A DNA stretch of 64,000 bases from Candidatus Bathyarchaeia archaeon (GCA_050010755.1 JBEKKK010000001.1:736001-800000), one strand, 5' to 3'. Shown: positions 9,279 through 35,460, counted from the stretch's first letter. A program made the numbers and translations. Notes: a model not told the origin generated them from the letters alone.

Positions 9279-9315
9279 ACGGGCTACAGCTTTCCTAAAA
9301 CGGGCGGAACTCCTC

Positions 9316-18591: not shown

Positions 18592-19875
18592 TTGAGGGTA
18601 ATAGCCGACTTCCACATGCACAGCCGTTACAGCATGGCGACGAGCGAAAGAATGTGCATCAAGGAGATTAATCGTTTTGCAAAGATTAAGGGTCTAAAGG
18701 TTGTGGGCACGGGGGATTTCACGCATCCGAAGTGGCTTCAAGAGCTGAGTGAGACGCTGGTTCCTGAACCAGATTCAAACCTGTACAAGTCGGTCTCAGA
18801 TGACAATTCGACCGTGCGTTTCATCGTTACGACTGAAGTCAACACCGTCTTTGCAGCCAAGACTGGATTTAAGAAAGTTCACCACGTCATTCTGACGCCG
18901 AGCTTGGAAACCGCGGGACAAATTAATGATAGACTGGCAAAATACGGTAATCTGGCTTCAGACGGCAGGCCAACCCTGGACGTTAACGCGGCGCATCTGG
19001 TTGAGGAGGTCATGGAAGTTTCAGCTGACAACATGGTTTTCCCCGCTCACGCATGGACGCCTTGGTTCGGTATTTTCGGTGCTTTCAGCGGTTTCAACAC
19101 CATCCAAGAATGCTACGAGGACATGGCTAGGCACATCTATGCTTTGGAAACCGGTCTTTCATCAGACCCGCCTATGAACTGGAGGCTGAGCGGCCTTGAC
19201 AGGTTTACGCTGGTTTCGAACAGTGACAGCCACAGTTTCTGGCCGTGGCGCATCGGAAGAGAGGCAAACGTCTTCGAACTTGAGAAGCCAGATTATCATG
19301 AAATGCTGGGTGCCATCCGTACAAAAGATACGGCACGATTAAAGTTTACGATAGAAACAGACCCTGCTTATGGCAAGTATCATTGGACCGGCCACAGAAA
19401 CTGCAATGTGTCGCTCTCGCCGCAGGAGGCAGCGAAGCTTGGAAACATCTGCCCAGTTTGCCGCAGAAACCTCACTAAAGGCGTTGAGCAACGTGTTGAA
19501 GAGCTTGCTGACCGCCCGGCGAATTTTAAGCCTGAAAACACCCCCGGGTTCGTGCGTCTGCTTCCGCTCTCGGAAATCATTGCCACATCATTAGGAGTTG
19601 ATTCACCATCCTCTGAGAAGGTGTGGGGCGTTTACAACCCGCTCATAGAGAGATTCGGGGACGAGTACTCCGTTCTGATTGATCGTTCGAGAGACGAACT
19701 GAGCTCCGTTGCGGGTGAACAGCTGGCCGAGGCAATACTGCGTGTTCGAGACGGGAAGGCCAGGGTTGTCCCTGGTTTCGATGGCGTTTATGGGCAACTT
19801 GTTCTTGATGAGAAGGCGCATGGTCAAATCTTGCCGAAAAGAGTTCAACAGTTGAATCTAAATGATTTCGTATAA
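18592..19875 (+). CDS. endoQ: endonuclease Q (PHP domain, Zn finger, C-terminal PIP box)
   Basis: DFHMHSRYS, GTGDFTHP, PAHAWTPW, ETGLSSD, SNSDSHS, GKYHWTGHRNC...CPVC, PGFDGVYG, QLNLNDF. Confidence 0.9.
   Translation: MRVIADFHMHSRYSMATSERMCIKEINRFAKIKGLKVVGTGDFTHPKWLQELSETLVPEPDSNLYKSVSDDNSTVRFIVTTEVNTVFAAKTGFKKVHHVILTPSLETAGQINDRLAKYGNLASDGRPTLDVNAAHLVEEVMEVSADNMVFPAHAWTPWFGIFGAFSGFNTIQECYEDMARHIYALETGLSSDPPMNWRLSGLDRFTLVSNSDSHSFWPWRIGREANVFELEKPDYHEMLGAIRTKDTARLKFTIETDPAYGKYHWTGHRNCNVSLSPQEAAKLGNICPVCRRNLTKGVEQRVEELADRPANFKPENTPGFVRLLPLSEIIATSLGVDSPSSEKVWGVYNPLIERFGDEYSVLIDRSRDELSSVAGEQLAEAILRVRDGKARVVPGFDGVYGQLVLDEKAHGQILPKRVQQLNLNDFV
19846..19859 (+). repeat. attL core CAACAGTTGAATCT within the endoQ 3' end
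   Basis: identical to 35336-35349; extends to 20/24. Confidence 0.88.
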
Positions 19876-20101
19876 GAAAACAGTTAGATGCTAGTTTCTG
19901 AACCCGCCCTCATTGCAAATGATAACTGCATGTCCGACGTTGCTCCCACTTACCTTCTCAAACATGTAGAGTTTCGTCCTGAATGCGTTTTGAAGTCTTT
20001 CGCGCGCGTACCTGTTTGGTCAAGAACAAGAATCCACTTAGCGAACGATATGGAAAAGACTTTCTATCGAACGAATTCGCATGAAAATGAGGCAAACCGA
20101 A

Positions 20102-20575
20102 TCAACTTGAGTCCACCGTCAGGCTAACCGTCTCAGTGTCAAATCTTGTTGAGTTGAAGTAAAACTCCGCATTTATTGGGTATGTGCTCGTGAGAGCCCC
20201 TCCTGTCGATGTTGGGATGACGGTCAAAGAGTAAGTCGATTGTTGACCAGCATTTAGGCTCATCTGGAAGTATGGCAACCCCTCACTATTAGGAAGCGGA
20301 GAACCATCCTTAAAGAAAGTCAAAGGACTAGTAGTGTTGAATATCAGCATTACGTTGTGCGGCTCAACTGCGTCATTATTCTTGATTGTAAAATTAAATA
20401 GGGCAGATTTATTTACGACCACTTCGCTCGGATTCAAAGAAACACCGCTCACTGTGAATGCCGAAGTTCCCTGAGTAGAATACCACCATGCGACCCCAAT
20501 GATTATACCGACAACAATCAAAACTAGAATTAGGATTCCACCTTTGGCTATTCCACTGTTTGAACGAGAATGCAA
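20102..20575 (-). CDS. membrane-anchored protein with extracellular Ig-like beta domain
   Basis: N-terminal hydrophobic helix, S/T/N-rich beta-strand pattern. Confidence 0.65.
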   Translation of the reverse strand: MHSRSNSGIAKGGILILVLIVVGIIIGVAWWYSTQGTSAFTVSGVSLNPSEVVVNKSALFNFTIKNNDAVEPHNVMLIFNTTSPLTFFKDGSPLPNSEGLPYFQMSLNAGQQSTYSLTVIPTSTGGALTSTYPINAEFYFNSTRFDTETVSLTVDSS

Positions 20576-20651
20576 AATAGTTCTTTCTCCAAGTTGATGA
20601 CACGACAGAGACGCTTTTAAGTTTAACTATAGAGTCAAGGATTCAAAGTCA

Positions 20652-20981
20652 AAAGACAGAAATCTTAAATCTGCACAGCAACAGAGGACAAACTACAGGC
20701 TCAAGAATGAGTAAGGCTTTGCCAGAGAATAGAAAACCATTGAAATGTGACTTTGAGGAATGCCCAGAAATGGTTCAATGGTATAGAAAGTATAAAGGAA
20801 AACTCTGGAAATTATGCACTAAACATGAGGCTTTTATGGCAAGGCAACATCAAGGTCATTCTGTAGACCGTGACCACTTAACCCCAGATGATTGGCGATA
20901 CTTGAGGCAAAAGGATTTAGAAGAAGAAGAGTAGTCTCTAGTCAAGCTGAAAGACAGAAATCTTAAATCTGCACAGCAACA
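20652..20981 (+). repeat. 32-bp exact direct repeat (promoter/leader) in front of two small ORFs
   Basis: AAAGACAGAAATCTTAAATCTGCACAGCAACA at 20652-20683 and 20950-20981; similarity continues to both ATGs. Confidence 0.92.
20707..20934 (+). CDS. small Zn-finger protein (CxxxxC...CxxH)
   Basis: CDFEEC and CTKH; directly behind the repeated leader. Confidence 0.65.
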   Translation: MSKALPENRKPLKCDFEECPEMVQWYRKYKGKLWKLCTKHEAFMARQHQGHSVDRDHLTPDDWRYLRQKDLEEEE

Positions 20982-21005
20982 AAAGACGAACTAGAGGTTC
21001 AACAA

Positions 21006-21392
21006 ATGACATTACCAAACTTGGACGAAGTGCGCTATGCTGTTTCAGATTCAATCAAGACCGTTGAGAATCTAATCGAAAAGCTATCTACTCAAAAATC
21101 TCTAACTCACCAAGAATTTCGTCATGATTACCACTCTATAATGATGGAGCTTCTTCAAATTGAGGATGAAACCCAATTGCTTACTGTAAATGACAAATAC
21201 AGTAAGGGATTTTATAAAATGAAGAAAATCCTTCTTTCGCTGCTTGACATAGACAAAATAGAGAAGAAACACGCAAACGACCACTTCATTTTCTTGGACA
21301 CTCAACTTACGAAAGACATGCGAAAAGACCTAATCAAGTTCTTCAAGAACATCTCCAAGCAGCTTAAACAAGTTCTGAAAACACTCAACTAA
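21006..21392 (+). CDS. hypothetical helical protein
   Basis: 128-aa ORF directly behind the second leader copy. Confidence 0.65.
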   Translation: MTLPNLDEVRYAVSDSIKTVENLIEKLSTQKSLTHQEFRHDYHSIMMELLQIEDETQLLTVNDKYSKGFYKMKKILLSLLDIDKIEKKHANDHFIFLDTQLTKDMRKDLIKFFKNISKQLKQVLKTLN

Positions 21393-21466
21393 AGCTCTTG
21401 TCAAGCTGAAAGCTGAATATGAGAAGACGAAAACTTGGCTGAAGAGCGCGCGCTATAGCATGCATT

Positions 21467-22684
21467 TTAGGCTCCAATGTTCATGAAATCTGCAAGTGAA
21501 GAATTTTTCTGTTCTGTAACCTCTTTCTCAGGATAAGCCTTAGTTACGAGTTTACCTTTGAATGCCTTAGACATCAGGGAGTCCTGCAGTTTAGCGATTT
21601 CTTTGGTTGATATGCCTTGGTTCCCCCTTAAGCTGTTGATTCCTTCAACGATACTCACAAATCGCTCCTGCAAATCCAATCGTGGAAGTGGGATTCGCAG
21701 GTCACCGACTTGTTTAAGGTTCAAATGTAGTCTTGTAGCTCCTCTCTTGATGTTCTCAATTTGCTCTCTAACATAGTCAGTAGATAGCGCATGAACTACA
21801 TAAGTCGGGTTGACCAAATCTTTCCTGAGACGGACCAATGCTTGGTCTTGGTTCATGTTCGCAGGACAGACATCTGCTGTTACTATCGCACACCGTCCCA
21901 AAGTTCCTGCTATGCTAATCACAACGTCATCAGGGTGAAGTTGTGACCGTTTCATTCTTGAGTGAACCGTTTCTGTAATGTAGTCTGCATCATCAAGCAC
22001 AATTCTGAAGTCTTTTATGTTCTTGATGCGAATTATGGGGACTCCGCTGCTCTGATATCTGTCCCCCTTCCAAAGAGGCGACTCACCTTTGGTAATTAAG
22101 GTGCTCACTTCTTTCAGTTTCTTCATGGGTACATTGAAATCATGTGTCTTAGGGTCTCTAAACATTTGCACGAAGACAGCTTGAAGAAGTTTGTTTGTCA
22201 GCAGATTCGCCTGTTTCCTCTTTACAAGAAGGGCGTCAGCTTTTTCAAGAATTCTCACTATCCGTTCTTGGTAATCTAATGGAGGGACGATGATTTTCTT
22301 CCTTTTAAGGAACCTATAATGCCGGCTGTATCCTGCGTTTTCAATGGGTATCCATCGAAGTTGGTAGTAGAAGAACTTGGGAATCAGGATGTTCTTTCTG
22401 ACTCTAATGATTTTGGTTCCGTCTGCACCCACACAAAAAGGAAAATTCACGAATTTGACAATTCTTGTATGGTCACCAAAAATAACTGAGTCCCCTTCTT
22501 TGGGAAAGACTTTGGAAATCTCATCCGAATATCCTGCAATGAACTCTTGCCCTTGGTCAATAATCGGAAACTTTCCCTTCTCTTTGTAGTCAGAACGTTT
22601 TATTTTGATTTTCGAAGGGGTGCTATCTCCTTCTATGCAACTCTCAAAATCTACAATCCTCCAATCCTTTGGCAACGTTGTCAT
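21467..22684 (-). CDS. hsdS: type I R-M specificity subunit
   Basis: LPKDW start, two TRDs each followed by PPLDYQERIV / LPRLDLQERF conserved helices, KAFKGKLV. Confidence 0.95.
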   Translation of the reverse strand: MTTLPKDWRIVDFESCIEGDSTPSKIKIKRSDYKEKGKFPIIDQGQEFIAGYSDEISKVFPKEGDSVIFGDHTRIVKFVNFPFCVGADGTKIIRVRKNILIPKFFYYQLRWIPIENAGYSRHYRFLKRKKIIVPPLDYQERIVRILEKADALLVKRKQANLLTNKLLQAVFVQMFRDPKTHDFNVPMKKLKEVSTLITKGESPLWKGDRYQSSGVPIIRIKNIKDFRIVLDDADYITETVHSRMKRSQLHPDDVVISIAGTLGRCAIVTADVCPANMNQDQALVRLRKDLVNPTYVVHALSTDYVREQIENIKRGATRLHLNLKQVGDLRIPLPRLDLQERFVSIVEGINSLRGNQGISTKEIAKLQDSLMSKAFKGKLVTKAYPEKEVTEQKNSSLADFMNIGA

Positions 22685-24192
22685 TCTATCATCTTTTTCA
22701 ATTCATCAAGGTCTTTCAAAATTTCCTCTTCACTTGTCATTACTTGGTCAATTATCTGAACGGGGTTCTCATAGTCAATTTGAACTTGTTCTATTTCCTT
22801 GTATTGTGAAATTGACAAACTAAAATTATTCTTCGTGATTCTATCAATAGGAACTACGATACTCTGAGTAGCTTCCTTACGTTTTCTGAACATCTCTATA
22901 ATGTTAGGAATGTCGCCTTTGCCATCAATGAAGTCCCTTTTTTGGTCCAGACTGTATCCATCTTTTAGCATTTCATAGAACCAAACATTCTCAGTCTTGC
23001 CACCTTTCACAAATACCAAAACTGCTGTGCTGACTCCCGCATACGGCTGAAACACTCCTGAGGGCATGGATACCACCGCTTCAAGCTGACATTTTTCCAA
23101 CAGCATTCTCCTAGCCTGCACATGAGCATTGGAAGAGCCAAACAAGACACCATTGGGAACAATTACAGCAGCTCTCCCACCGACTCTAAGCAGGTTATAG
23201 AACAACTCCAAGAATAGGAGTTCAGTTTTCGTGGTGGTAAGTTTGAATGCGTCATTGATGTCGCTTTTGTCTATTGACCCTGCAAAGGGTGGATTGGCAA
23301 AAACAATATCATACTGTTGTTTCTGTTCAAACTTTCTGGATAGTGTATCGGCATAGCGGATGTTTGGTCTTTCTATCCCGTGGAGAATCATGTTCATGAG
23401 TCCAATGCGAATCATCGTTGAATCAAAATCAAAACCGTAGAAAGTCTCTCTCTTCAGTAAGTTCCAATGAGCTTTTTCAACTATTCTGTCGCCTACAAGA
23501 TTATGCGCTTTGCCGTCCTCTTCGGTTACAATTATGTCGTTGCTTGTGTATTTTCTGAGGATGTGTTCATATGCCCCGATTAGGAAGCCTGCTGTTCCAC
23601 AGGCAGGGTCACAGACTGTTTGTCCAATGTCAGGGTCAACAAGCTCAACCATCATGCGGATTACGTGTCTTGGAGTCCTGAACTGTCCATTCTTCCCTGA
23701 GGTTTTCAACTCACTCAAGAGGTATTCATAGATGTCTCCTTGAGTGTCTTGGTTTCTTTCCGTGATGTTCATCTCATCAATTATTGCAACCGCTTCCTGT
23801 AGCAGAGAAGCCTTCGGGATGGCAAACATGGCATCTTTCATGTATTGAGAGTAGAGAACGTCATCTCCGTTGTGAAGAGTCTTTATGAAGGGAAAGACCA
23901 CTCCTTGAAAATGCTTGAGCATGTCCTCAGCATTCAGATGCTTCCATTGAGACCACCTGCAGTTTTCGTGCCCTTCAAAGACGGATTTGTGCTGTTCTCC
24001 TCTTGCTGCGGCCCTTTTGGCGTGGATTGCGTCCAAGTCTTCGAGTCTCTTGATGAAAATCAGATAGGACATTTGTTCAATTGCGGTTAGCGGATTTGCT
24101 ATTCCTCCTGACCAAAACCTATCCCAGAGCTTGTTAATCTGCGACTTGAGTTCAGGAGCTAACACGTGTTCCTTTCCTCTCCAATTGAGCAC
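22681..24192 (-). CDS. hsdM: type I R-M N6-adenine methyltransferase
   Basis: GQFRTPRH, DPACGTAGFL (motif I), ANPPF (motif IV); true start probably GTG at 24165. Confidence 0.96.
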   Translation of the reverse strand: MLNWRGKEHVLAPELKSQINKLWDRFWSGGIANPLTAIEQMSYLIFIKRLEDLDAIHAKRAAARGEQHKSVFEGHENCRWSQWKHLNAEDMLKHFQGVVFPFIKTLHNGDDVLYSQYMKDAMFAIPKASLLQEAVAIIDEMNITERNQDTQGDIYEYLLSELKTSGKNGQFRTPRHVIRMMVELVDPDIGQTVCDPACGTAGFLIGAYEHILRKYTSNDIIVTEEDGKAHNLVGDRIVEKAHWNLLKRETFYGFDFDSTMIRIGLMNMILHGIERPNIRYADTLSRKFEQKQQYDIVFANPPFAGSIDKSDINDAFKLTTTKTELLFLELFYNLLRVGGRAAVIVPNGVLFGSSNAHVQARRMLLEKCQLEAVVSMPSGVFQPYAGVSTAVLVFVKGGKTENVWFYEMLKDGYSLDQKRDFIDGKGDIPNIIEMFRKRKEATQSIVVPIDRITKNNFSLSISQYKEIEQVQIDYENPVQIIDQVMTSEEEILKDLDELKKMIE

Positions 24193-27011
24193 ATAGTTGT
24201 ATTACTTCCTTCAAATCTTCATCTTCAAACAATGGAATAGGAGCGTTGACTCCAAAATTGGTGAAAGGAGGCTCAAACAAGTCACCATAATCAATATGAT
24301 GCTTCTTGGTAAAAACTGTCTGTATAGTTCTCAGAAAGTTCACTTGGTCAGCATTAAGATAGTTCTTCTCAATCATGAACGTCTTAAAAGCATCTTCAAT
24401 CATCTTCTTAGGTTCAGGAAAACTGTACAAGCCTAAAACGTTCTTGATGAACTGCACAAGTGTTCCCCTGTTTTGTTTGAAGGCTTTCTGCAACACTTCT
24501 TCCGTGATGTAGAGCTCAGGACTATTCAGAGTCAACTCAAGATTTACCAAGTCTTCCTCGTTCAAGGCCTCATTATTCTTTATCTTTAGAATTGTCGGAT
24601 TTTTATCAGCAAGCTGCCTAATCCTCTCTTCAACTTTCTGAATGTAGGTTTTCACATACTCATGAGAAGGCAACGGTCCATACGCAATGATTTCTCTCTC
24701 TTTTATCCAATCATCAATATCCAATTTGATAGTAGGTCTTGGTTCAGAAAGCTTGTATCGCATCAACGGACCAAATTCTCTACCAAGCATCTGAGCATCT
24801 TCATAGGATATGCTTGTCCAAAAATCAGCACGGAGAACCCTGTTTAGCAAATGTTGCTTTTCCTTTACTGCATTAATCGTTGTTGGCAGACAGTTCAAGT
24901 ATTCTCCTATAGAGTCCCGAAGTGCTTCAATCTCTACTTGACTCTTGTGCAAGATTGCCAAACTCAACTGCTCAACTTTAAGCATGAAATAGGCTTCATC
25001 AGGATTGACATCAGACTTGTACTTCATAAGCGGAGCAATCTTTCCCTTCAAAAACTCCAACTGATTAACGCCTATCATATCCCAAAAATCAGGAGAAAGC
25101 GCCTTCTCCAACTCCCTCATATGTTCCTTAACAGAAGCTGAATCCACAGGCAAGCTATTCATATCAGCAGTCAGTTTTCCCTTGACCTGCTCAGACCTCA
25201 CATCTTTGACACTTAGGAAATAGTCCATTTGCTGCAATCTTGCAATGAAAATCTTTATAGGAACAGCCTCAGCAGGCTTCTCCTCTTTCCCAGGAGGATG
25301 CATCTTGAACCATTCAAAGTTCTTCCAAAAATCAAAAATCAAAAATCAAAAAATACTCTTTCTTACGGTTTGGCAACCAATGCCTATGAAGCTCTTTACA
25401 GGTTTGGTCATTTCTTGTACCTCTGCCAATCATCTGCCAAAACCTAATCTTGGAAAACACAGGCTTGGCAAAAGCAAGATTGCACACTTCGGGAACATCT
25501 ATCCCCGTATCAAGCATATCAACCGAAATGGCAACCTTCGGAAAATCATCATTTTTGAATTCGCTAATCAGCTGCTGTGCTCTGCTGTCTTCTGAAACTA
25601 TGATTCTTGTGAGCCTTCCTTTATACTGCGGATAGAGTTTTTCAAAGGCTTCCCACAGCCGTTTAGCATGCTTCTTTGAGACGGCAAATATGATTGATTT
25701 TGCAGGCAGAGTTCCTGTTTCATCCATCACGCAGTTGTCCATGAACTCTTTGACTATGGCTTCATTCGTGCCTACTACAACTACCTTTTTCTCAATGTCT
25801 GTGCCCTCAAAATTGAGTTCTTCCTCCTCAATCCCCAATTCCTCTAAAACTTTCTTCTTTACCTCGTCAGGCACGTCTTCAGGTTTTATACCTTCAATCT
25901 GAAAATAAGTTTGGGCAGCATAAACTTTGTAATCAACAAGGTAGCCCTCAGCTACAGCTTGTTCATAAGTGTAAAGATATGTTGGCACACCACCTTCACA
26001 TTCAAAAAACCTGAAGGTGTCTCTCTCTATCAATTCTGAAGGAGTGGCTGTCAAGCCTATTTCCATAGCGTCAAAATATGTGAAGACCTCTTTCCACTTA
26101 TTGTATATGGACCTGTGAGCTTCATCTGAAATGATAACGTCAAAATCACCGCAAGAGAATTGCTGATAACACTCCATGAAAGTCTGTATTGTGGACGCGT
26201 AAAGACGTGGGAACTTCTGCACGTCTCCTGAAAAAACCTTCACCTTGGATTCATTTGGAAAGAACGTTTTGAACCCCAAATCTCCGTAAGCCTGGTCTCT
26301 TAACGCTTTTCTGTCCGCAAGAAAAAGGATTCTCTGTCCTCTATTTGCCCTCAGCAGAACATCAATGAGTGCCATTGCCACACGTGTCTTGCCCGTGCCC
26401 GTTGCTTGAACAATGAGGAACTTTCTTTTCCCTTTCTCGATTCCTTCAAGAACTCTCTTAACCGCTTCAATCTGGTATGGTCTGTCAACAATTTCCTTCT
26501 TAATAGGCACATCTTGAAAGTCTTTCTTTGAATAATTTTGGAACCGTATCCTCTCAAGCGAGTTCCTGTCATGGAATCCACTGACCATTCGGGGATTCTC
26601 AAACGGCTTATTCCAAAACCAAATCTCATAACCATTAGTCAAAAAGATGAATGTATCCTTGCCTGTCTGCTGCCTAATATCTGCAACATAACCTTCAGCC
26701 TGCCTCTGCCCCAAAATAGGGTCTTTGGATGTCCTCTTGACTTCAACAACCGCCAAAGGAAGCCCTTTTGAATCCAACAACAGATAATCAGCATAAGCAC
26801 TATCCTCAGGATTCTTCAACGTCTCCGGCATCGTCTTGTACTTGCCATAGTTGAAGTCGGACTGTTTTGTATCGACTTCTTCAATGACTTTAGTTCTGTC
26901 TTTTGAGCCCCAACCACATCTTTTCAGCAATTTATCTATCTTTTCTCTACGAGTTCTATATTCAGACAGACCTGCCATTTCTGTCACTGATTCAGTCTGC
27001 AAATATGTCAC
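24152..27011 (-). pseudogene. hsdR: type I R-M restriction subunit (EcoEI/EcoAI-like), split by a frameshift at a 7-bp tandem repeat
   Basis: N part: ADYLL..VVEVK nuclease, ATGTGKT, DEAH, QMIGRGTR. C part: EcoEI-type C-terminus. Junction is (AAAAATC)3 at 25327-25347. Confidence 0.92.
25327..25347. repeat. (AAAAATC)3 simple sequence repeat in hsdR
   Basis: removing one unit restores EYFLIFDFWKNFEWF. Confidence 0.95.
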
Positions 27012-27119
27012 AAGATAGGCTATAGCATTTGTGCAGGTAAAGGTAGGCGCGCACTAACCAATCTATCAATGTAAATAAGACCTTTTAAGGTAGTACGTGT
27101 TTAACGATTCTGAGAAAGC

Positions 27120-28295
27120 ATGTTCTATACTGGATTTGACTCCACAAAATTAGCAAAAAAGTTCATCCCTTTAGAAGATTTCCTTAACAAGCCGCAGGAA
27201 TCTGACCAAACGAACGCTGAGGAACTGAACTCAGAATCTCCTAAACCTGAGCAACTCAAAGAGGAACCCATTGATTCCGAAGAGGCAAATGCAATGCCCA
27301 AGTTGCCTATTGTATTAAAGGCATTAATCGGAGCGTCAGTCACAACGCAAGACTCAGATTTTGACGAACATTATAAAACTACTCTTGGCAACGTATTTGA
27401 AAGACACGATATTCGACTGGAAAAAACGATTTACAAAGGCGCACACATAGTGAAGCAGATAGGCGCAAACTTTGACCAAGTATTTACTGAAATCTTGAAC
27501 GAAATAGGACCAGCTCTCGCTCATATAGACCTTTATTTTGCCACATATCCTAAACCGTTCGTTTCGATTTTTGGCAAGGCTCAAGGAGAGCGATTACGTC
27601 CTTTGGAATACATAGAGAAACATCAAAATGGATTTGCGCATGCGTGTGCATGGTGGCATTGGAGAACTTACTCTAGAGCTGAAACAGAATATGAATATCA
27701 TATTGACCATTTTGAAGGTAGGGCAACACCAGCATGGGCTGAAATGGAATCTAGCAAAGTGAACATAAAATCATACTACAATGGATCTGAATGCGACTGT
27801 CTTATTTCCTTTGCTGACCTTATCTTGAAAGCATTAGACATATTCCATTTTGGAACTATTGACTACCGAAGCATCTCTCAACCAATAAGGAAGAGAGCTA
27901 GAACCTTCGCCCTAACTCAAAAAATAAAGAGCTACGATTTAGCGAAATATGATTGGACAATAAAAGCAACAGTTCCTGAGTTGCCACTAGACATAAACCT
28001 CAATCGCTATGTGAAGCATCCAATATATTTCATTGCATGGACTCCAACATTACCAAGAAAAACAGTAAAAGTGAGTTTTGAATGGAGTAAATTATACAAC
28101 TCTATAATTCAGAAAGCGATTAAGGCAAAAGGGTGCGTGAAATTTCTGGACTTTGACAAAGACATGACTTTCTGGGATACAACCGATTTCATCATACCTT
28201 GGGAAGCCCCTGACGAAGAACATGTGAGGCTTCTATTAAGCATGGGATTTGAAAGGATGCCAAAAATACTAAAATCATCCGATATAATAACATAA
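27120..28295 (+). CDS. DUF3800-like RNase H-fold protein (tentative)
   Basis: N-terminal YTGFDS, central YHIDH, and GSECDCLISFADLI resembling the DUF3800 S..IQ.AD motif. Confidence 0.5.
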   Translation: MFYTGFDSTKLAKKFIPLEDFLNKPQESDQTNAEELNSESPKPEQLKEEPIDSEEANAMPKLPIVLKALIGASVTTQDSDFDEHYKTTLGNVFERHDIRLEKTIYKGAHIVKQIGANFDQVFTEILNEIGPALAHIDLYFATYPKPFVSIFGKAQGERLRPLEYIEKHQNGFAHACAWWHWRTYSRAETEYEYHIDHFEGRATPAWAEMESSKVNIKSYYNGSECDCLISFADLILKALDIFHFGTIDYRSISQPIRKRARTFALTQKIKSYDLAKYDWTIKATVPELPLDINLNRYVKHPIYFIAWTPTLPRKTVKVSFEWSKLYNSIIQKAIKAKGCVKFLDFDKDMTFWDTTDFIIPWEAPDEEHVRLLLSMGFERMPKILKSSDIIT

Positions 28296-28638
28296 CAAAA
28301 TAATGCGTTTTCACGCAAGGAGTGCACCCTTTGGGCTTAGAGTGTACCAAGTATACAGCGTTTATAAAGTCGTATTTAACACTTGTGGAGCACGGTTCTA
28401 TTTGTCATCGTCTCGCATGTGTCCCACGTCTGTCCAACGCGTGTCTCACATCTATATTACACTTGTTAGATGGACGACAATTATCTTATGGTTATTCTTT
28501 TCTTAATGCATTTGTTCCCATTCTTCCCGAGTCAAGACGCCTTTTCCTCCCGCTAGGCCTGAGAGTATAGTATCCAGTGGGTCTAATTCTAGCGCGCGCG
28601 GGCTCACCGCGTTAACACTGGTGACGAGCATTGATTGT

Positions 28639-29390
28639 TGACTGTTCAAAACCTGTTCTATAATATAGAGAGAACGCATATTGAACATCTAGGGTAGAGA
28701 ATTTGAGAGTGCATTCCAAGAGCTACCACAGCGATGCTTTAAACCTTCGGACACGATGCCAGGCTTGAAGTACTCGATTGGATGAAGTTCTTCCCGCTTA
28801 CACCAGAAATTGGTAAACCTGTCACGTGGATTCTGCAGCAGTTCATCAGCAGTCGCGTAGCCGATGAGGTGAACTGAGTTTTCATGAGCCGCGTTCAAAC
28901 CCAACACGTAAAAGCTTTCTTTGAGGGTGGTTTCTTTGAACGTTAAACCCCATTTGTTTTTGACGCGTGTTTTTACGTTGTACGGCTGGGCGCCTATGAA
29001 TCCATCTGGCTGATGCGGCCACACATTCACATCGTTGAACTTGAACACGAGACGCCAGGGTTCACCGAGCAACGTGTGAACTGCAATTTCACCGAAATAA
29101 CCGACCCAGTGGTTCCTAAGAATGTTAGAGAAGTGTTCATGCGTGAGTGCATTATCGTGTATAGCTTTCACTAAAGCTTCCCACGAGGTTTGAGGAGGCA
29201 GCTTCATCTCCTCAAGCAGATGCTTCAAGTCTTTATGCATGTTAGACACGCCCAGCTTCGTCAGTTCACGTATGTGCTGCTGAACGCCGCTTTCACTTTC
29301 AAAGATTTTTCGGATGTTTACCGCAATCATGCTGCTCCACCTGCTCAATATTTGTTCCTTATGTATTATAGAACAGGTTTTGAACAGTCA
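28639..29390. repeat. 752-bp module bounded by inverted repeats (27 bp perfect, 42/49 extended)
   Basis: TGACTGTTCAAAACCTGTTCTATAATA at 28639-28665 and its reverse complement at 29364-29390. Confidence 0.93.
28689..29330 (-). CDS. PD-(D/E)XK restriction-endonuclease-fold protein
   Basis: GYFGEIAV...QPDGFI...YNVKT motif; ATG at 29330 preceded by AGGTGG. Confidence 0.65.
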   Translation of the reverse strand: MIAVNIRKIFESESGVQQHIRELTKLGVSNMHKDLKHLLEEMKLPPQTSWEALVKAIHDNALTHEHFSNILRNHWVGYFGEIAVHTLLGEPWRLVFKFNDVNVWPHQPDGFIGAQPYNVKTRVKNKWGLTFKETTLKESFYVLGLNAAHENSVHLIGYATADELLQNPRDRFTNFWCKREELHPIEYFKPGIVSEGLKHRCGSSWNALSNSLP

Positions 29391-31652
29391 GCCTCGAACC
29401 CTCCTTATCGTGCTGACGCTAACCCCGTATTTTTCAGCGAAAACTTTATGTCTAATCTTAGAATCTGCAGTCTTTATCTCAGCAACCTCTTTTTCTGTAA
29501 GCTCACGCGGTCTTCCAGACTCCTTCGCTGGGAACTGCGCACGATAAGCCTCGTCAACGATGTCGTACGGCGTCGTGAAAGTGTTCTCTGCAAAGACGTT
29601 AACGTCGCGGTCGAGTTTGCGCTTGCCGTCGAACAACCAGCTGATCTTCTTTTTCTTGTGTTGAACTGAGTTTAGCGGAATGTTGTCGTGTATAAAGTCC
29701 ATCAAGCCTGTCAGCCGAGTCGTCTCGCTCTCAAGGATGACCTCTTTGCGTGCAGCTAAGTTTTCACGTATCATTCTTTCAAAGTTAAGTTTCTTTTCGT
29801 CCGAAGAGCCTGTCACCGCGATGCCTCCTTGTGCAGCGTGAACCAGCTTGCCCTGATACCATGCTGCATAACACCGATTTCTTCCAATCCAGAGCTCATC
29901 TATCGACGCTTCACGCCGTATGCCGCTGTAGAACTTCGCTAATTCTTTTGATAGGTTGCTTTGCTCAAACATCGGGTCACCGAGCCAGAAGCCGCCGTCT
30001 GTCGAGATAGTTAAACAACGTTCACCTTGATTGATAGCCCACCCTGCCATGCTGCGAGCTCTACCCACTATCAGCGACGCCCATTCGATGTTCCAACTAC
30101 CACCTACCTCGCTGCGCGTGTACATCGCACGCATCGCCTTCTTCTTGCCGTATTTTCTGAACTCCTCGCTTTGCAAGCCGCTCACGTGCAACAGCCGGGC
30201 AATATCTTCAGCCGTATGACTCGGCTTCATGTAAGCGAAGCGGCCGATGATGCCCACCATCTTTGCCTTTTCAATCTGATAGTCGGTGCTGTCGCGTTTA
30301 CCGCGCGCTTCAAGCTCAGTCTTCTTCTTCAGCATATCAACAAGGAACGGTCTCAGCTCATTTTCAACTTCGTTCTCCAGCGGCATAAAACCGTAGCCTC
30401 TGAACTTCGTAACATTCACACCCAGAGTCAGCGCCTGTCGAAGCTCAGCCAACGTGCAGTACGATAAGCCTCGTAATGGAAACATCAGTTTCGGATAATA
30501 GTTTACTTGAACAGGCAGCGTCGGGTACATCGTTGCATGAGGAAACTCGAACTCTACCTCGCAGAAGCCTTCAGCGCCTTCTTTAACATCCTGCAGCGTA
30601 ATCGGTTTGTACTCCGTGTCCTCGTTACTCAGAGGTTGCAGAATACCCGCTATGATGTAAAGAGATTTGAAGTCATAATAAGAGGCTTGAACGTGCGGGA
30701 AATATCCTCGTGCGAAAGCCTGATTGTTACCTCCCCAATACGACATTACGGCGAGAAGTCGTTCGTTCAAGTCGCCGCTGAAAGTTAACGTTTTCGCAAC
30801 ATGCTCGCGCCACGAGCCATTCTTCATCTTCTGGTTTATCTGTATACGTTCTTCTTCAGCTTTACATGGCAGCTTCTTCATCGTGCGCCGAAACGCTGCC
30901 ACCGTAATCGACGTGTACGTCGCGTAGCAGTGAGGGTCCAAGTTAAGTGGTTTATAAGAATCAACGATGCTGCGCCAAGCCTCGACTGCGATTTCAGCGT
31001 CTCGTACGGCGTAAGCCTCGTAGACCTCATGATGCCGTTGCAGCAACTCTTTCATGTGCAGCTTCCAATAGCTGTCATCTTTACCGTCAGCCTCGATTCG
31101 CAGCTTCGCGTAACCGATGGCAGCACCTACCTTGTCCAGAGATGTTTTCATGTGACCGAACAGATCAGCAATGTGTAGCGTGAAGTCTGAGCCTGAAACG
31201 CTGAATCGTCGTTGCCACATAACCGCCTTGTTAAACTCGCTGACCTTCGGCTTCACACGCACCGCGCGCCCGGCTTCAACGCTCTCATATTCGTCGTAAA
31301 AATCCTTGACCTTAGACAGTTCAGCAATCGCGAAATGCGCTATTAGAAAGATGTGCCTGCGCGGTTCGACATCCTGCTCGGCGAGGAATTTCAAAGTGTA
31401 ATCGAGAAGTTCGAGGGAGGAGATGCCTTCACGTTTGCCGATGTAATACACTTTTGAACGTCCGCGACCCAGTGAAAACTGCACGCTCAATAGTTCACGG
31501 TCAGCGCTGCTGTCCTCTGGCGTGAACTCAGTGTCGAAGCCGATGTCAATGTAGTCTTTCAACACTCGGCCTCTTTTCAATGGCGTGAGAACATGCTTCA
31601 AATCTTTCAGTTTAAGGTTTCCAACATCTTCTTTTCTCATACAAAAAACCAA
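29388..31652 (-). CDS. family B DNA polymerase, primer-independent (piPolB)-like, with C-terminal HTH
   Basis: ExoI FDTEF, ExoII AHFAIAEL, ExoIII YAVRDA, YWGGNNQ.F..G, motif A DFKSLY, FEFP...YPTLPV...LMFP..G, motif C ISTDG; tail FAEKYGVSVSTIRRV. Confidence 0.85.
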   Translation of the reverse strand: MVFCMRKEDVGNLKLKDLKHVLTPLKRGRVLKDYIDIGFDTEFTPEDSSADRELLSVQFSLGRGRSKVYYIGKREGISSLELLDYTLKFLAEQDVEPRRHIFLIAHFAIAELSKVKDFYDEYESVEAGRAVRVKPKVSEFNKAVMWQRRFSVSGSDFTLHIADLFGHMKTSLDKVGAAIGYAKLRIEADGKDDSYWKLHMKELLQRHHEVYEAYAVRDAEIAVEAWRSIVDSYKPLNLDPHCYATYTSITVAAFRRTMKKLPCKAEEERIQINQKMKNGSWREHVAKTLTFSGDLNERLLAVMSYWGGNNQAFARGYFPHVQASYYDFKSLYIIAGILQPLSNEDTEYKPITLQDVKEGAEGFCEVEFEFPHATMYPTLPVQVNYYPKLMFPLRGLSYCTLAELRQALTLGVNVTKFRGYGFMPLENEVENELRPFLVDMLKKKTELEARGKRDSTDYQIEKAKMVGIIGRFAYMKPSHTAEDIARLLHVSGLQSEEFRKYGKKKAMRAMYTRSEVGGSWNIEWASLIVGRARSMAGWAINQGERCLTISTDGGFWLGDPMFEQSNLSKELAKFYSGIRREASIDELWIGRNRCYAAWYQGKLVHAAQGGIAVTGSSDEKKLNFERMIRENLAARKEVILESETTRLTGLMDFIHDNIPLNSVQHKKKKISWLFDGKRKLDRDVNVFAENTFTTPYDIVDEAYRAQFPAKESGRPRELTEKEVAEIKTADSKIRHKVFAEKYGVSVSTIRRVRG

Positions 31653-31811
31653 CTTTTTCTTTCGCTCACACAGGGGGGATTTTGTTCCATTGTGTAACTA
31701 TTCGCGCGTATTTATTTAAACGTTACTTATTATTAAAAGTAACTCAAAAATGAATACTAATGATAAATCTTAAATATAAAGTAACGCGTATGTACCCCTG
31801 AGGACAAAGCA

Positions 31812-32210
31812 ATGCTGAGAAAGAGTGAAGTCAACTTTGTCGAGAAAAACAAAGGCCATAATGGAGTCATGATGGCTTCGGATAAACAAAAAATGTACAG
31901 GATTAGAAAGAAAGCGCAGAAAACTATTGAAGAACTGACTTACCTTGCCCAGAATCTCCCGGAGAAACAGCTTAAGCAAATTTTTAGTGAAGCTGCTCTT
32001 ATTCCGTTCTGCAAGGCGATTCTCCACAGGCCGGAAGCTGACAAGAAGCGCATTCGCAAAATCATCCTGGGGCTTATAGGGGACGTCTTTGGCGACGAGG
32101 AGTTTGCTCTGAGAATGGTTCCTGAAGACGCAAGAAGGCTGATTTCGAACACTGATAACCCGTTGGAACTCGTTGAGAGTTTGTTTTTCGCTTCAATGTA
32201 TTCAGAATGA
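31812..32210 (+). CDS. hypothetical basic helical protein divergent from the polymerase
   Basis: 132-aa ORF behind an AT-rich region with a TATA-like box. Confidence 0.65.
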   Translation: MLRKSEVNFVEKNKGHNGVMMASDKQKMYRIRKKAQKTIEELTYLAQNLPEKQLKQIFSEAALIPFCKAILHRPEADKKRIRKIILGLIGDVFGDEEFALRMVPEDARRLISNTDNPLELVESLFFASMYSE

Positions 32211-32464
32211 CTGCGCTTGCAGGTCAGACCATACTGGTACCTCAGAAGTGGGCTTCTCAGGAAATCAATTGAATAGTTCTTAGCGCGTGCTATATGAGTT
32301 ACGCAAAACCTTTTTTTCTCGACTCTGTTGAATGCCTATCCTTCTTGAGTGTGAGTAACTCGTAACCGATGTAATCATGATAACTACTTGGATTTGATTC
32401 GTGTTTGCTCCCTGCCGCGCGTGCTGAAAAGGCAGATAAGGTTGGTTAACCTATCTTCTGCAGG

Positions 32465-33868
32465 ATGGGATTAATGACTTCGCAGAGCTACTTTTCTTTG
32501 CTTTTGACTCTTGCAAAAATGACCCAGAAAATTACTACAGAATTTAATGAAAAAGGGCAGATAAGAAAAATCAAAATGCCATATCTCAAAGAAAAGATTA
32601 CGCGGTTTGAATACAAAGAAGGAAGCATTGCTCGGCAGTGGAGCTATGAACAAATCGTCAAAGAAGAGTGGGTCTGGGAGGACCTAGTCAGAATAATCGC
32701 GCCCGAGGCAAAAAAACTGGAAAGTTTTCCAAAAAGCGTCCAACAATTATCTGAGGTTTTTAAGGTTGATGTTACCCAAGCTGAATTTTGGGTATCTCGT
32801 TTTGTTGACGTAATTGCCAAAGAAACTTTGGAAAATGCCAATGAAGACAGAATTGCAGAATTGACTTTTTCCTTTGTGAGAGACCTAGAAGGTTCTCCAA
32901 GAACATGGTCTCCTAGACTGTGGCTTAAAGGAATATGGATGGTTGATGATGTTGTTGAAGTCTCTGAAAGTTTGCGATTTACAAAACCAGCGGCTGTTGA
33001 TCTTGAAAGAGAATGGAACTTGCGCATGTTCCCTTTTTTTTATGAAAATTGGCTACGTAATGACCCGAGCGCGATACTGGATGTATCATTCCGTGCTAAG
33101 AACCAGCCTGAAATGCAAAAGGAAATTGAAAAGCTGATGTTGGTGCTTCGTCTGTTCAGGGTTGGTTCAGTTTCCAACGTTAGAACAGTATGGAAGTCTG
33201 AGTCTATACTCGAATTTGGAGTAGGTGGCGTCTCCTTTGGGGGTCTATTATCTGAAAGTTATAAGTATTCCCTTTCAAAAGCAGATGTTCCCAAACTCAA
33301 AGAATTCTTTGAAAAGATAATTCCTCTTATTCCTCCGAACTTGTATGACCCTGCGATAAAACCAGTGGATTACTCCGTGATAGCTGTTCAAAGATACAAC
33401 GATGCAATTTCGAAGCCTGAGATATTTGAAAGCCGACTCAGTTTTGCAATAATGGCTCTAGAAGCGTTGTATTTGAAGGAAAACGAGCGTGAAGAACTAG
33501 AGCATCGTCTGAGTCAAAGGTTAGCTCGACTCTTGAGTTTTTGCCGCTATGAGCCAATCGAGGTTTACAACACAATGAAAGAGTCCTACGGATTGCGCAG
33601 CAGTTTCGTTCACGGTTCGCCAATCCCTGAGGAAAAGTTGAAAGGCATAGCGAAAATGGGTCAAGAAGTCATTGAATACGCGCGTTTATCAATTGTTTTG
33701 TTCTTGTTGCTAAAACAAGTGACTGAAAAAGACAAGTTTCTCAGTCTGATTGACCACTCATTGCTAAGCGAAAATGCTGTTGACAAGCTTGACAAAACTC
33801 TTAAAGAACACTGCACCATTTGTCTGGTTCAAGATTTAAGGTCCACTGAGGCTACTTCAAAGCCGTGA
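32465..33868 (+). CDS. ApeA-like HEPN domain protein (putative defence RNase)
   Basis: ALEALY..E..ELEHRLSQR helix and YGLRSSFVHG (RxxxxH); start probably later than 32465. Confidence 0.8.
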   Translation: MGLMTSQSYFSLLLTLAKMTQKITTEFNEKGQIRKIKMPYLKEKITRFEYKEGSIARQWSYEQIVKEEWVWEDLVRIIAPEAKKLESFPKSVQQLSEVFKVDVTQAEFWVSRFVDVIAKETLENANEDRIAELTFSFVRDLEGSPRTWSPRLWLKGIWMVDDVVEVSESLRFTKPAAVDLEREWNLRMFPFFYENWLRNDPSAILDVSFRAKNQPEMQKEIEKLMLVLRLFRVGSVSNVRTVWKSESILEFGVGGVSFGGLLSESYKYSLSKADVPKLKEFFEKIIPLIPPNLYDPAIKPVDYSVIAVQRYNDAISKPEIFESRLSFAIMALEALYLKENEREELEHRLSQRLARLLSFCRYEPIEVYNTMKESYGLRSSFVHGSPIPEEKLKGIAKMGQEVIEYARLSIVLFLLLKQVTEKDKFLSLIDHSLLSENAVDKLDKTLKEHCTICLVQDLRSTEATSKP

Positions 33869-33966
33869 AAAACCTCAAAAAGTTACTGCGCATTTCATCT
33901 TTAGCGCGCGCTGCATTTTCTGCCTAGGTTGCAACCCAAGCACAGAGAGAACCTAGGGGGCTAGGG

Positions 33967-35268
33967 TCAGTGTTCGACCACAATCTTCCCGCTGGCCAGG
34001 GACGTGACCACTTTCCAGCCATTCTTTAGGCATTCAGTCAACTCTGTTTCGGTTACAAGTTTCTGACAATGTTCGCCGTCGGGGCAATCTTCTTTCTGCT
34101 TATTCACCTGTCCCTTGGGCCGCTTGGCGCGGAGGACTTTGCCCACGTTCTCAGCGTCTCGTAACTGAATCCCTGCCCGCTTTGCTGCGTCACGTTGGTC
34201 AGGTGATAAGCTCTCCTTGAACTTTTCCAAGGCCTTGAGTCTCTCTGAGAACTCAAACGTTACCGTCGGTATCTCACTTGTAAATTCCAAAATCTGAACT
34301 GCCTCAGCGAACTTGCTCCGCAGCTGGTCAATCGCTGGCCTTGAATATGGAGCCTCTTCGCCCCGGACTTTTCGGCCTCTGATTTTCCTGGCCCAGTTTG
34401 GAGGCATTCGGATTTCTTCCATCGCTGTGTTTACGTAGCGTCTTGCATCATGCCAATTAAATGTGACACCGGCTTCTTTTGCCAAGCTCCACATCAGTTT
34501 GCCCATATGACCGTATTTGAGCGGGCCGTATGGAGATTGCGCTGAAAGAAAGATGTGGTCCTCAGGTGTAAGTCTTCTTCTCATTCTTGATTCGACCCAT
34601 TCTTTATAGTTTAACAAGTCGCGTTTGGCTTCGGGCGTGAGGAAGGTTATCTGTCTAACGTCTTTGTATCTTCCGATTCCATGCCCCTTTAAGAGCTCAG
34701 GAGGGATGTTAATGCATGGCAAGTCAATTTTTTCCCATCCTTCTTCAAGGTGTTTCCATTGAATCCGCGAAATAGTTTCTTTCGCGATGGCTGTGCTGCA
34801 CACGAAGGTTATGAGTGATTTGTCCCTTGGATTGAGAGCCCAGTTCCAAAGCTTGCGCAAGTCGGCTTTCCGAGGCATGTTGTACGGTCTCACTTTTTCA
34901 ACATTCAATGCGCCCGAGGCTTTGGCGAGGTCGATGTAGTTGTGCTTGAAGAAACTCTTGACTGCAGTGATTAGATGAAATTTCACAGCGTTCGTGAAAC
35001 CCACATTCTCTGTTGACACAAGCTCGTCCAGCAACTTCTCAACTTCCTTGTTTGAGGTTTCCATTTTCAGCAGCTCAGATGGTGTTTTTGCGGCCCATTC
35101 GCAGAACCTATAGAGACTGAAGGCGTTCATCGTCTTGTCTTGGAGTTTGGCAAGCCAACGTTTCACTTCTGGGTACTGGTCTGCCCACAGAGGAATAACA
35201 TTTGAGCTTTTCATCTTCTCAGCTACCTCGGTTGGCTTCTTGCCTTTCGGTCCTACATTACTCGTCAT
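33967..35268 (-). CDS. tyrosine recombinase/integrase
   Basis: RDKSLI, KGHG, HDARR (HxxR), APYSRP catalytic Tyr, C-terminal GWKVV domain seen in archaeal integrases; ~70 bp from attR. Confidence 0.88.
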   Translation of the reverse strand: MTSNVGPKGKKPTEVAEKMKSSNVIPLWADQYPEVKRWLAKLQDKTMNAFSLYRFCEWAAKTPSELLKMETSNKEVEKLLDELVSTENVGFTNAVKFHLITAVKSFFKHNYIDLAKASGALNVEKVRPYNMPRKADLRKLWNWALNPRDKSLITFVCSTAIAKETISRIQWKHLEEGWEKIDLPCINIPPELLKGHGIGRYKDVRQITFLTPEAKRDLLNYKEWVESRMRRRLTPEDHIFLSAQSPYGPLKYGHMGKLMWSLAKEAGVTFNWHDARRYVNTAMEEIRMPPNWARKIRGRKVRGEEAPYSRPAIDQLRSKFAEAVQILEFTSEIPTVTFEFSERLKALEKFKESLSPDQRDAAKRAGIQLRDAENVGKVLRAKRPKGQVNKQKEDCPDGEHCQKLVTETELTECLKNGWKVVTSLASGKIVVEH

Positions 35269-35335
35269 CCCAGACGCCTCGAAAAATGATGTACGCAGCC
35301 GAGTACTTATAGTTGCTTACTGTTTTCCTATACAA

Positions 35336-35349
35336 CAACAGTTGAATCT
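35336..35349 (+). repeat. attR core followed by the displaced endoQ tail (QQLNLTDFTF-stop)
   Basis: CAACAGTTGAATCT TACCGACTTCACTTTTTGA. Confidence 0.88.
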
Positions 35350-35460
35350 TACCGACTTCACTTTTTGATGTCTGGTCCATGCTTTTGCTGTATGTGTGGT
35401 GAACAAGTCTACGACAAGACTTATTAAATCGTAAGACGTGCGATTATTCTGTGATACCGA

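Follow-up and report, generated by a model that had tools for sequence, protein, structure and literature searches.

An integrated element at the 3′ end of endoQ

The stretch of DNA analysed here, in the following called the window, comprises 64,000 nucleotides of a Candidatus Bathyarchaeia archaeon (GCA_050010755.1, JBEKKK010000001.1:736001-800000). It holds an island that starts within the last codons of endoQ, a gene of the endonuclease Q family (18592..19875, plus strand; NCBIfam TIGR00375 at 2.2e-63), and that encodes a family B DNA polymerase (PolB). From its left end the island carries o157, two small open reading frames (ORFs) with a 56-nt repeat, the type I restriction-modification (R-M) genes hsdS-hsdM-hsdR, o391, o219, the PolB gene, o132, o467 and an integrase gene. 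We consider it highly probable that this island is a 15.49-kb integrative element of a Bathyarchaeia-like archaeon, built like the pipolins of bacteria and equipped with a PolB of its own.

The island is bounded by direct repeats at 19846-19869 (attL) and 35336-35359 (attR), which start 15,490 bp apart and are the sole long-range direct repeat around it. The two copies match at 20 of 24 positions and share an exact 14-nt core, CAACAGTTGAATCT. A direct repeat by itself is weak evidence, and the decisive control is the empty site in relatives. In all four genomes of the same genus the match to endoQ stops at window position 19869, and the match to the right flank starts at 35336 in three of them and at 35335 in the fourth (G001). 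The left and right matches in G002 overlap by exactly those 24 nt, and the alignment of the empty site contains a single att copy, with the left flank of attL on one side and the right flank of attR on the other. All four genomes have an uninterrupted site with one repeat copy. The insertion is site-specific at the 14-nt core in endoQ, and because it is absent from all four congeners it is recent at genus scale. The island is low in GC (0.39-0.45 at 20-29 kb and at 31-34 kb), except for the PolB gene with 0.48-0.50; the flanking DNA has about 0.50. An archaeal-type TldD is encoded downstream of the right repeat copy.

The endoQ ORF comprises 427 aa, and the 14-nt core encodes the conserved QQLNL end of the protein. 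The native C terminus, RVQQLNLTDFT followed by F, L or S, is conserved among homologues; the window version ends in ..QQLNLNDFV. Bases derived from the element follow the core in attL and give EndoQ this replacement C terminus, and attR resembles the native 3′ end of endoQ in relatives. Another EndoQ homologue (P0217, 82% identity) ends in ..RVQQLNLIDFIQENS in place of the conserved ..TDFTF, which may reflect another insertion at the same att core.

Adjoining attR is the gene of a divergent tyrosine recombinase of 433 aa (33967..35268, minus strand), predicted to be the integrase. Its own matches are weak (PHROG integrase at 1.5e-5, NCBIfam XerA at 6.7e-4) and it has no Pfam match, but seven of 12 aligned homologues match Phage_integrase (PF00589; best E 3.6e-8), and H273 and R276 (HxxR) as well as Y308 are invariant in the alignment (A5). 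A conserved C-terminal extension of about 45 aa (window 33967-34110; C.DG.HC ... E..L..L..GW ... G.V.V) has no family match.

Scans of the island ORFs against Pfam, NCBIfam, PHROG and PADLOC gave no match to a Cas1, capsid, terminal-protein or primase family; an archaeo-eukaryotic primase (AEP) was not found in the element by tblastn, and PF22548 had no match in the genome that carries it. The initial annotation, made from the sequence alone, had described an att-bounded element of 15.5 kb in an archaeal genome, with a tyrosine integrase and a type I R-M system and with neither casposase, capsid nor terminal protein, and in all these points it agrees with our results.

A PolB with a phi29-type fold

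The PolB gene (29388..31652, minus strand) encodes 754 aa. The true start is probably residue 5, since the homologues begin with MRKE. The motifs IAHFAIAEL, SYWGGNNQAFARG, FEFPHATMYPTLPVQVNYYPKLMFPLRG, KAKMVGIIGRF and ISTDGG are all present, including the degenerate motif B and the STDG motif C that had been pointed out before. Residues D40, E42, E111, Y214, D218, D327, K462 and D552 are invariant in 23 PolB sequences with identities down to 29%. This set covers ExoI, ExoII (with Glu for Asp), ExoIII, motif A and the second aspartate of motif C, and the catalytic residues of both exonuclease and polymerase are kept.

An AlphaFold model of the protein (mean confidence, pLDDT, 85.1; predicted template modelling score 0.79) found its best match among solved structures in phi29 DNA polymerase (E 6.5e-15), followed by archaeal cellular PolBs at about 1e-10. 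Aligned to phi29, terminal protein region 1 (TPR1) spans 87 window residues and TPR2 spans 38, the latter with low model confidence; the TPR2 span is two residues in RB69 and three in an archaeal cellular PolB. The PolB thus has the phi29-type fold, with TPR1- and TPR2-like inserts. The last 45 or so residues appear to form a helix-turn-helix (HTH), as suggested by a weak profile match, by HTH_38 in the homologue from locus L089 and by three helices in the model. Sequence searches of solved structures, with the single protein and with a profile, gave no PolB match, and the profile returned the weak HTH only.

The PolB family and its relation to primer-independent polymerases

Pipolins and their primer-independent PolBs (piPolBs) have been described from bacteria and mitochondria; for these elements we draw on PMC5695915, PMC11551731 and PMC6563490. 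A word-indexed search with the window PolB revealed 45 close homologues at 46-80% identity, all metagenomic, and one intermediate at 30%. A further 19 proteins, mostly of 860-990 aa, matched at 24-28% identity (E 1e-17 to 4e-5), and the three of these that carry names belong to Leclercia and Enterobacter. The three named proteins contain the piPolB signatures SxTTDG and KH-x8-KTRG, as do 11 of the 12 named proteobacterial loci examined (31 were fetched). A tblastn search against 50,697 phage records gave no match at E<=0.01, and the same search matched 11 plasmids, eight from Staphylococcus and three from Fusobacterium. One of these is S. epidermidis pSE-12228-03, named as a piPolB plasmid in PMC11551731. 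The family is large: an exhaustive profile search returned 1,693 cluster representatives at E<=1e-3, of which 879 reach 1e-10 and 251 reach 1e-30. A subgroup of 600-650 aa (P0150) was considered as a possible known Firmicutes piPolB group, and this was dropped, its only plasmid matches being a Bacillus cereus linear-plasmid PolB and Fusobacterium plasmids (5e-7 to 3e-6).

Three trees were calculated, one with FastTree (103 rows, 653 columns) and two with IQ-TREE on 55 rows and 532 columns (LG+C20+F+G4-PMSF and LG+G4). The 103 rows are a chosen sample of 211 proteins and locus ORFs, and the 55 rows are a subsample of these; L011 and L041 (partial) and L012 and L018 (near-duplicates) were left out. 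References were phi29, PRD1, Bam35, His1, ABV, RB69, the Staphylococcus plasmid and PF03175-type PolBs of the same archaeal phylum, and the S. epidermidis plasmid alone stands for piPolB group 1. In each of the trees one clade consists of the canonical piPolBs (support 99-100) and another of a metagenomic assemblage that includes the window PolB (94, 100 and 99 for FastTree, PMSF and LG+G4). The two are joined with a support of 98 in every tree (SH-aLRT in the two IQ-TREE runs), and phi29, PRD1, Bam35, ABV, the cellular PolBs, and His1 together with thaumarchaeal PolBs of 596 aa all fall outside this join. We take the 596-aa proteins to be of the family-1 casposon type (adjacent Cas1 unconfirmed). 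An alternative topology that unites the assemblage with the protein-primed PolBs (pPolBs) is 31 log-likelihood units worse (approximately unbiased test, p-AU 0.044, LG+G4). On this phylogeny the window PolB belongs to a large sister assemblage and is not nested within the canonical piPolB clade, and its nearest characterised relatives appear to be the piPolBs rather than the sampled pPolBs, thaumarchaeal 596-aa PolBs or cellular PolBs. The suggestion of a possible new branch in the initial annotation is borne out by the trees.

Some results count against a close tie to the piPolBs. Identity to the canonical members is 21-24%, and the Pfam DNA_pol_B_2 match reaches 23.7 bits against a cut-off of 25.8. 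Casposon families 2-4, polintons, adenoviruses and mitochondrial plasmids are absent from the trees. The rejection of the alternative topology is marginal, was obtained with the simpler LG+G4 model, and concerns groups that were named after the first tree had been seen. The ExplorePipolin threshold for the piPolB hidden Markov model (HMM) is E<=1e-50 (PMC11551731), and the window PolB would probably fail it, because its phmmer E-values to enterobacterial piPolBs are about 1e-17. By the same inference this threshold would miss the large sister clade uncovered here.

Related elements and a partner gene of PolB

Relatives of the element were collected from 55 metagenome loci and two genome loci (57 related loci in total, many of them short contigs). 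Integrase-family matches occur in 23 of the 57 (21 at E<=1e-20 and two weak) and o219 matches in 24. The R-M genes are common to only one other related locus, at 26-27% identity, and o391 and o467 are not shared. The family consists of a small core and variable cargo, since R-M genes, o391 and o467 are not shared save for that one distant R-M system.

A minimal member, L089:1358-6453, is 5,051 bp long and lies between perfect 45-nt repeats that correspond to the 3′ part of tRNA-Pro(CGG). It encodes an integrase (PF00589, and PF16795, the archaeal phage integrase) whose ORF begins within the repeat, a 239-aa ORF, the PolB-HTH fusion and a 145-aa ORF. The integrase gene of L071 likewise adjoins a tRNA-Pro gene. 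Very large ORFs, with 66-nt tandem repeats or with beta-helix, NosD, PKD or CARDB domains, were seen between PolB and integrase or in the flanks of L059, L061, L062 and L069. They look like surface proteins, either cargo or neighbours of the elements.

Directly downstream of PolB lies o219 (28689..29348, minus strand). Of the 33 loci with enough sequence, 23 have a match to it on the strand of PolB and no more than 700 nt downstream; 15 of these matches are strong (E<=1e-60) and eight weak (1e-7 to 5e-4). Its alignment (A4) contains the pattern E..PD..(D/N)xK, with Asn in the window copy and Asp in most homologues. The model of o219 (pLDDT 88) has 25 BFVD matches at E<=1e-3, mostly phage proteins, and the weak fold matches are enriched in proteins of the restriction-endonuclease fold. 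A fold search of the PDB gave nothing significant (best E 1.7). The nuclease assignment made earlier is suggested by the conserved pattern and the weak fold matches, and o219 is possibly a nuclease of the PD-(D/E)xK type.

Such a nuclease could provide a primer. o219 would nick an origin, and the phi29-like PolB would extend the 3′-OH by strand displacement, as in rolling-circle replication. The conserved position of o219 after PolB, its pattern, the enrichment in restriction-endonuclease folds and the TPR2-like insert of PolB are all consistent with this. On the other hand o219 has no significant match to a solved nuclease, carries Asn where most homologues have Asp, and is missing in ten of the 33 loci. 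We regard nick priming as improbable.

Residues and neighbours linked to priming

The hallmarks of piPolBs given in PMC5695915 are SxTTDG, KTRG and an invariant KH eight residues upstream of KTRG. For the E. coli enzyme, K613 of this KH was reported there as needed for de novo priming, and K613A strongly reduced priming. The first hallmark is found in the window PolB, where motif C reads T-I-S-T-D-G and the first aspartate is replaced by Ser (Thr in canonical piPolBs). The same replacement occurs in every one of the 45 close homologues that extend over motif C, and among the 150 matches listed the wider assemblage has STDG, STDS, STDA, TTDS and HTDS. In addition, the TPR1 and TPR2 inserts and, within TPR1, the signature FxFP..YP.LPV..L.FP..G are common to the window PolB and the piPolBs.

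These shared features, together with the position as sister to the canonical piPolBs, raise the possibility of a functional archaeal pipolin, in which PolB would start chains de novo on the excised circle with neither primase nor terminal protein. No primase family was found in element or genome, and L089 has no recognisable replication gene besides PolB. Moreover, integration by a tyrosine recombinase implies a circle, which is ill-suited to protein priming, as argued in PMC5695915.

The residues most directly linked to priming tell against self-priming. At identical x8 spacing, E-A stands where piPolBs have KH. Glu occupies the K613 position in eight of eight subfamily rows (the second residue is A, G or S), as it does in the primer-dependent PolBs of phi29, Bam35, PRD1 and RB69, although KH is present in some members of the wider assemblage (P0079, P0085). 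KTRG(Q) is not conserved but replaced by R-N-R-C-Y, which shares the central Arg and retains the tyrosine of KxY as in RQKTY of phi29, whereas canonical piPolBs have KTRGQ/N here. Motif B is degenerate, keeping Lys and Gly only, without N, S or Y. The motifs that had been taken as defining piPolB features are real, but two hallmarks fail, the KH lysine being Glu and KTRG being RNRCY. Judged by the Glu, RNRCY and motif B residues the window PolB looks ancestral rather than piPolB-like, and primer-independent synthesis by it finds no support in these residues. A further point against is an AEP primase gene beside PolB in 11 of 32 related loci. We hold de novo priming to be possible, with some reserve.

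Upstream sequence of 900 nt or more is available for 32 loci, and in 11 of these the AEP gene directly precedes PolB or overlaps it; with two shorter loci that have tblastn matches the count is 13. An AEP-TOTE primase domain (116 bits) is encoded in L061 by the ORF at 9015-10004, which runs into the start of PolB. AEP-TOTE was confirmed in all 11 upstream ORFs tested (104-118 bits, cut-off 27), the others being those of L059, L060, L063, L065, L066, L068, L069, L074, L080 and L081. The AEP-PolB(-o219) operon is confined to one subclade, whose PolBs are 59-67% identical to that of the window. AEP is absent from the six loci of the subgroup at 75-100% identity to the window PolB, and from those outgroup loci whose upstream sequence is long enough. 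None of the eight loci with known upstream sequence in the window's subclade of the family tree has it, and on this tree the trait requires at least two changes, which may be gains or losses.

Because of the AEP beside PolB in 11 of 32 loci, the inference that the clade primes itself is weakened. The PolBs could instead be primer-dependent, with primers made by the AEP primase of the operon in one subclade and by the host primase here. The AEP-TOTE genes agree with this, as do the Glu and the tyrosine of RxRxY, which are ancestral residues of the primer-dependent type. AEP is, however, no general requirement, since it is lacking in the window's own subclade and in the outgroup loci, and the recruitment of a host primase is a supposition. 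To our mind the chance that primer dependence is correct is somewhat short of even. Protein priming was also considered and judged unlikely given the tyrosine-recombinase integration and the lack of both terminal inverted repeats and a terminal-protein candidate in the element; we think it very improbable.

A possible, though doubtful, reading of the clade as a whole is that it stands between protein-primed and primer-independent PolBs, on circular elements that carry an integrase. The first aspartate of motif C would already have been lost, the Glu and the KxY tyrosine would have been kept, and an AEP would have become coupled in one subclade.

Integrity and proposed cycle of the element

The integrase, PolB and o219 genes appear intact. 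For PolB, dN is 0.16-0.33 with dS saturated, and omega is 0.06 in the one computable pair, which points to strong purifying selection. A PolB copy at L085:10001-12258 (66% identity) has three in-frame stops and belongs to a decayed member.

Several observations speak against a mobile element. Exact identity between the att copies is limited to 14 bases, and the copies differ outside the core. The first catalytic arginine of the integrase is not evident in alignment A5, and hsdR is out of frame. No excised circle (attP) and no attB joint was found in the contigs of four metagenome runs (X1-X4). The contigs of all four runs bridge attL and attR and represent the integrated form; since contigs drop rare forms, they say nothing on rare excision.

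The element may accordingly be decayed or immobile, or its PolB may serve repair or defence instead of replication of the element. Besides the frameshift in hsdR, the differing att copies and the exclusive sighting of the integrated form, the decayed PolB in L085 would fit this. It is opposed by the apparently intact integrase, PolB and o219 genes, by the invariant catalytic residues and strong purifying selection of PolB, and by the recent insertion at genus scale. Decay or another use of PolB therefore seems unlikely.

We propose the following course for a mobile element. The tyrosine integrase encoded beside attR would have recombined a circular form into the 14-nt core of endoQ, and the element would excise as a circle. 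PolB, which its HTH would guide to the element, would then replicate this circle. The replication module would comprise the PolB-HTH fusion and usually o219, the remainder being exchangeable cargo; in the window this cargo would consist of a type I R-M system with out-of-frame hsdR, a HEPN-like protein with an Rx4H motif and several other proteins.

Comparison with other mobile elements

Bacterial pipolins such as that of E. coli 3-373-03_S1_C2, as portrayed in PMC5695915 and PMC11551731, resemble the element in several respects. Both are integrative islands that occupy the 3′ end of a conserved gene and have direct repeats on either side, both encode a tyrosine recombinase and have as the only replication protein a pPolB-like PolB without the first motif C aspartate, and both combine a small core with variable defence cargo including type I R-M and lack virion genes. 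A small core with variable cargo is described for enterobacterial pipolins in PMC11551731. In contrast to the bacterial elements, the host is archaeal and the target is the protein-coding endoQ instead of a tRNA or tmRNA gene, although tRNA-Pro serves as the target in the relatives L071 and L089. The PolB belongs to the sister group of the canonical clade and has STDG instead of TTDG, Glu instead of the KH lysine and RNRCY instead of KTRG. It has a C-terminal HTH and the partner o219, the integrase is of a different family, and some relatives have an AEP. Recombinase and direct repeats are present in the element and no primase was found, as expected of a pipolin, while the AEP-bearing relatives break the no-primase rule. 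Whether the element has the pipolin hallmark depends on whether the sister clade is counted as piPolB.

The pPolBs of phages and archaeal viruses (phi29, PRD1, Bam35, His1, ABV) share with the window PolB the best fold match, that of phi29, the TPR1- and TPR2-like inserts, and Glu with R-x-(K/R)-x-Y. Unlike the window PolB they fall outside the clade in the three trees, and the window element, integrated by a tyrosine recombinase, has neither a terminal protein nor terminal inverted repeats. Casposons are likewise archaeal integrated elements with a PolB of their own. They differ in that scans of the island ORFs gave no Cas1, the repeats here are direct and not inverted, and the integrase is a tyrosine integrase; furthermore, the thaumarchaeal 596-aa PolBs, whose casposon identity is unconfirmed, group with His1 and away from the window PolB. 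Archaeal integrative plasmids of the pRN1 and pTN2 types replicate by AEP prim-pol proteins. Related elements resemble them in that their replication operon encodes a protein with an AEP domain. Any AEP of this family is paired with a PolB, and the window element has none.

The 2024 survey in PMC11551731 covered about 13,000 archaeal assemblies, counts only nine piPolBs among them, "of inconclusive taxonomy", and calls them negligible. A 2019 paper on the thaumarchaeal mobilome (PMC6563490) lists pipolins among the bacterial element classes without known archaeal counterpart. Within the texts that it covered in part, a full-text literature search gave no description of archaeal pipolins or of this PolB clade, although the nine archaeal piPolBs of PMC11551731 may include relatives. 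The window provides an archaeal element whose boundaries are exactly defined and checked against empty sites. Natural variation of the clade at positions connected with priming, and the presence of an AEP partner in some of its members, make the origin of primer independence testable. If the intermediate position is correct, such archaeal "proto-pipolins" would document the way in which a PolB came to do without a terminal protein, and E/K and Y/Q variants that occur naturally in the clade would reveal the residues responsible for de novo priming. Those who apply piPolB to primer-free DNA amplification may find the enzymes of interest too.

Host and distribution

No SSU rRNA gene was found in the host assembly (2.19 Mb, eight contigs), and the domain of the host was therefore set from Ribosomal_S8e. 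This protein is encoded on the same contig as the window, and among the controls the same search matches only the four archaeal genomes. By this marker the host is archaeal. The close EndoQ homologues that carry names come only from Candidatus Bathyarchaeia metagenome-assembled genomes (71-72% identity), and the host is probably a member of the Bathyarchaeia.

The metagenome runs that contain the element are from peat and wetland. PolB was found in none of 40 genomes of relatives, and in two of 401 genomes of a phylum sample that included the window's own. A first scan of genome contigs with the single PolB protein gave no relative. The distribution of the element is sporadic, and the PolB is rare in reference genomes.

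Cargo genes

All three type I R-M genes lie on the minus strand and are clear from Pfam and PADLOC matches. They encode the specificity subunit (hsdS, 21467..22684; Methylase_S at 3.2e-21), the methyltransferase (hsdM, 22681..24192; N6_Mtase at 5.8e-65, HsdM_N) and the restriction subunit (hsdR, 24152..27011; ResIII, HSDR_N and EcoEI_R_C). The last is split in two frames, with the N-terminal part at 25332-27011 and the C-terminal part at 24152-25342; the PADLOC profile REase_I PDLC03047 matches one ORF with its positions 236-704 and the next with 719-1076. The frame changes within three tandem TTTTTGA heptamers near 25330-25350, and by reading of the sequence one unit fewer would restore the full-length HsdR frame. 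Restriction could be switched here by strand slippage, or the gene may simply have been inactivated by mutation. The contigs of the four runs contain no length variant at the heptamers.

The HEPN gene proposed in the initial annotation, o467 (32465..33868, plus strand), is partly supported. R378-x4-H383 is invariant throughout its alignment (20 of 20 homologues), but no HEPN profile matched the protein in Pfam, PADLOC or a genome scan with HEPN_Apea, and its likeness to HEPN is confined to the motif. The sole HEPN profile lead comes from the Atlas, where HEPN_Apea occurs in 15-17% of the members of clusters near o467. None of the other loci examined contains the cargo gene o391 (27120..28295, plus strand), tblastn matching only the window's own contig (L053). 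A small conserved ORF, o132 (31812..32210, plus strand), is divergent from PolB and has tblastn homologues in L060 and L080 at 35-37% identity; an 85-aa ORF that overlaps it on the minus strand is probably spurious. Searches of PADLOC, Pfam and PHROGs gave nothing for o391, o132, o467, o75 or o128.

Near attL, o157 (20102..20575, minus strand) encodes a small protein with an N-terminal hydrophobic segment, predicted to be membrane-anchored (Pfam CARDB at E 0.012, below the cut-off). It is followed by two 56-nt direct repeats on the plus strand, 89% identical to each other, each of which precedes a small ORF: the copy at 20652-20707 precedes o75 (20707-20934) and that at 20950-21005 precedes o128 (21006-21392). 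In the host genome the repeat has 17 blastn matches, the two island copies included. Its first 40 nt or so recur at 87-100% identity at 15 or more other host sites, on contigs C1-C4 and C8, and several different contigs of the metagenome runs also carry it. The copies may act as a common promoter or leader sequence, or belong to a small dispersed repeat. A variant in run X4 lacks the 298 bp between the two copies.

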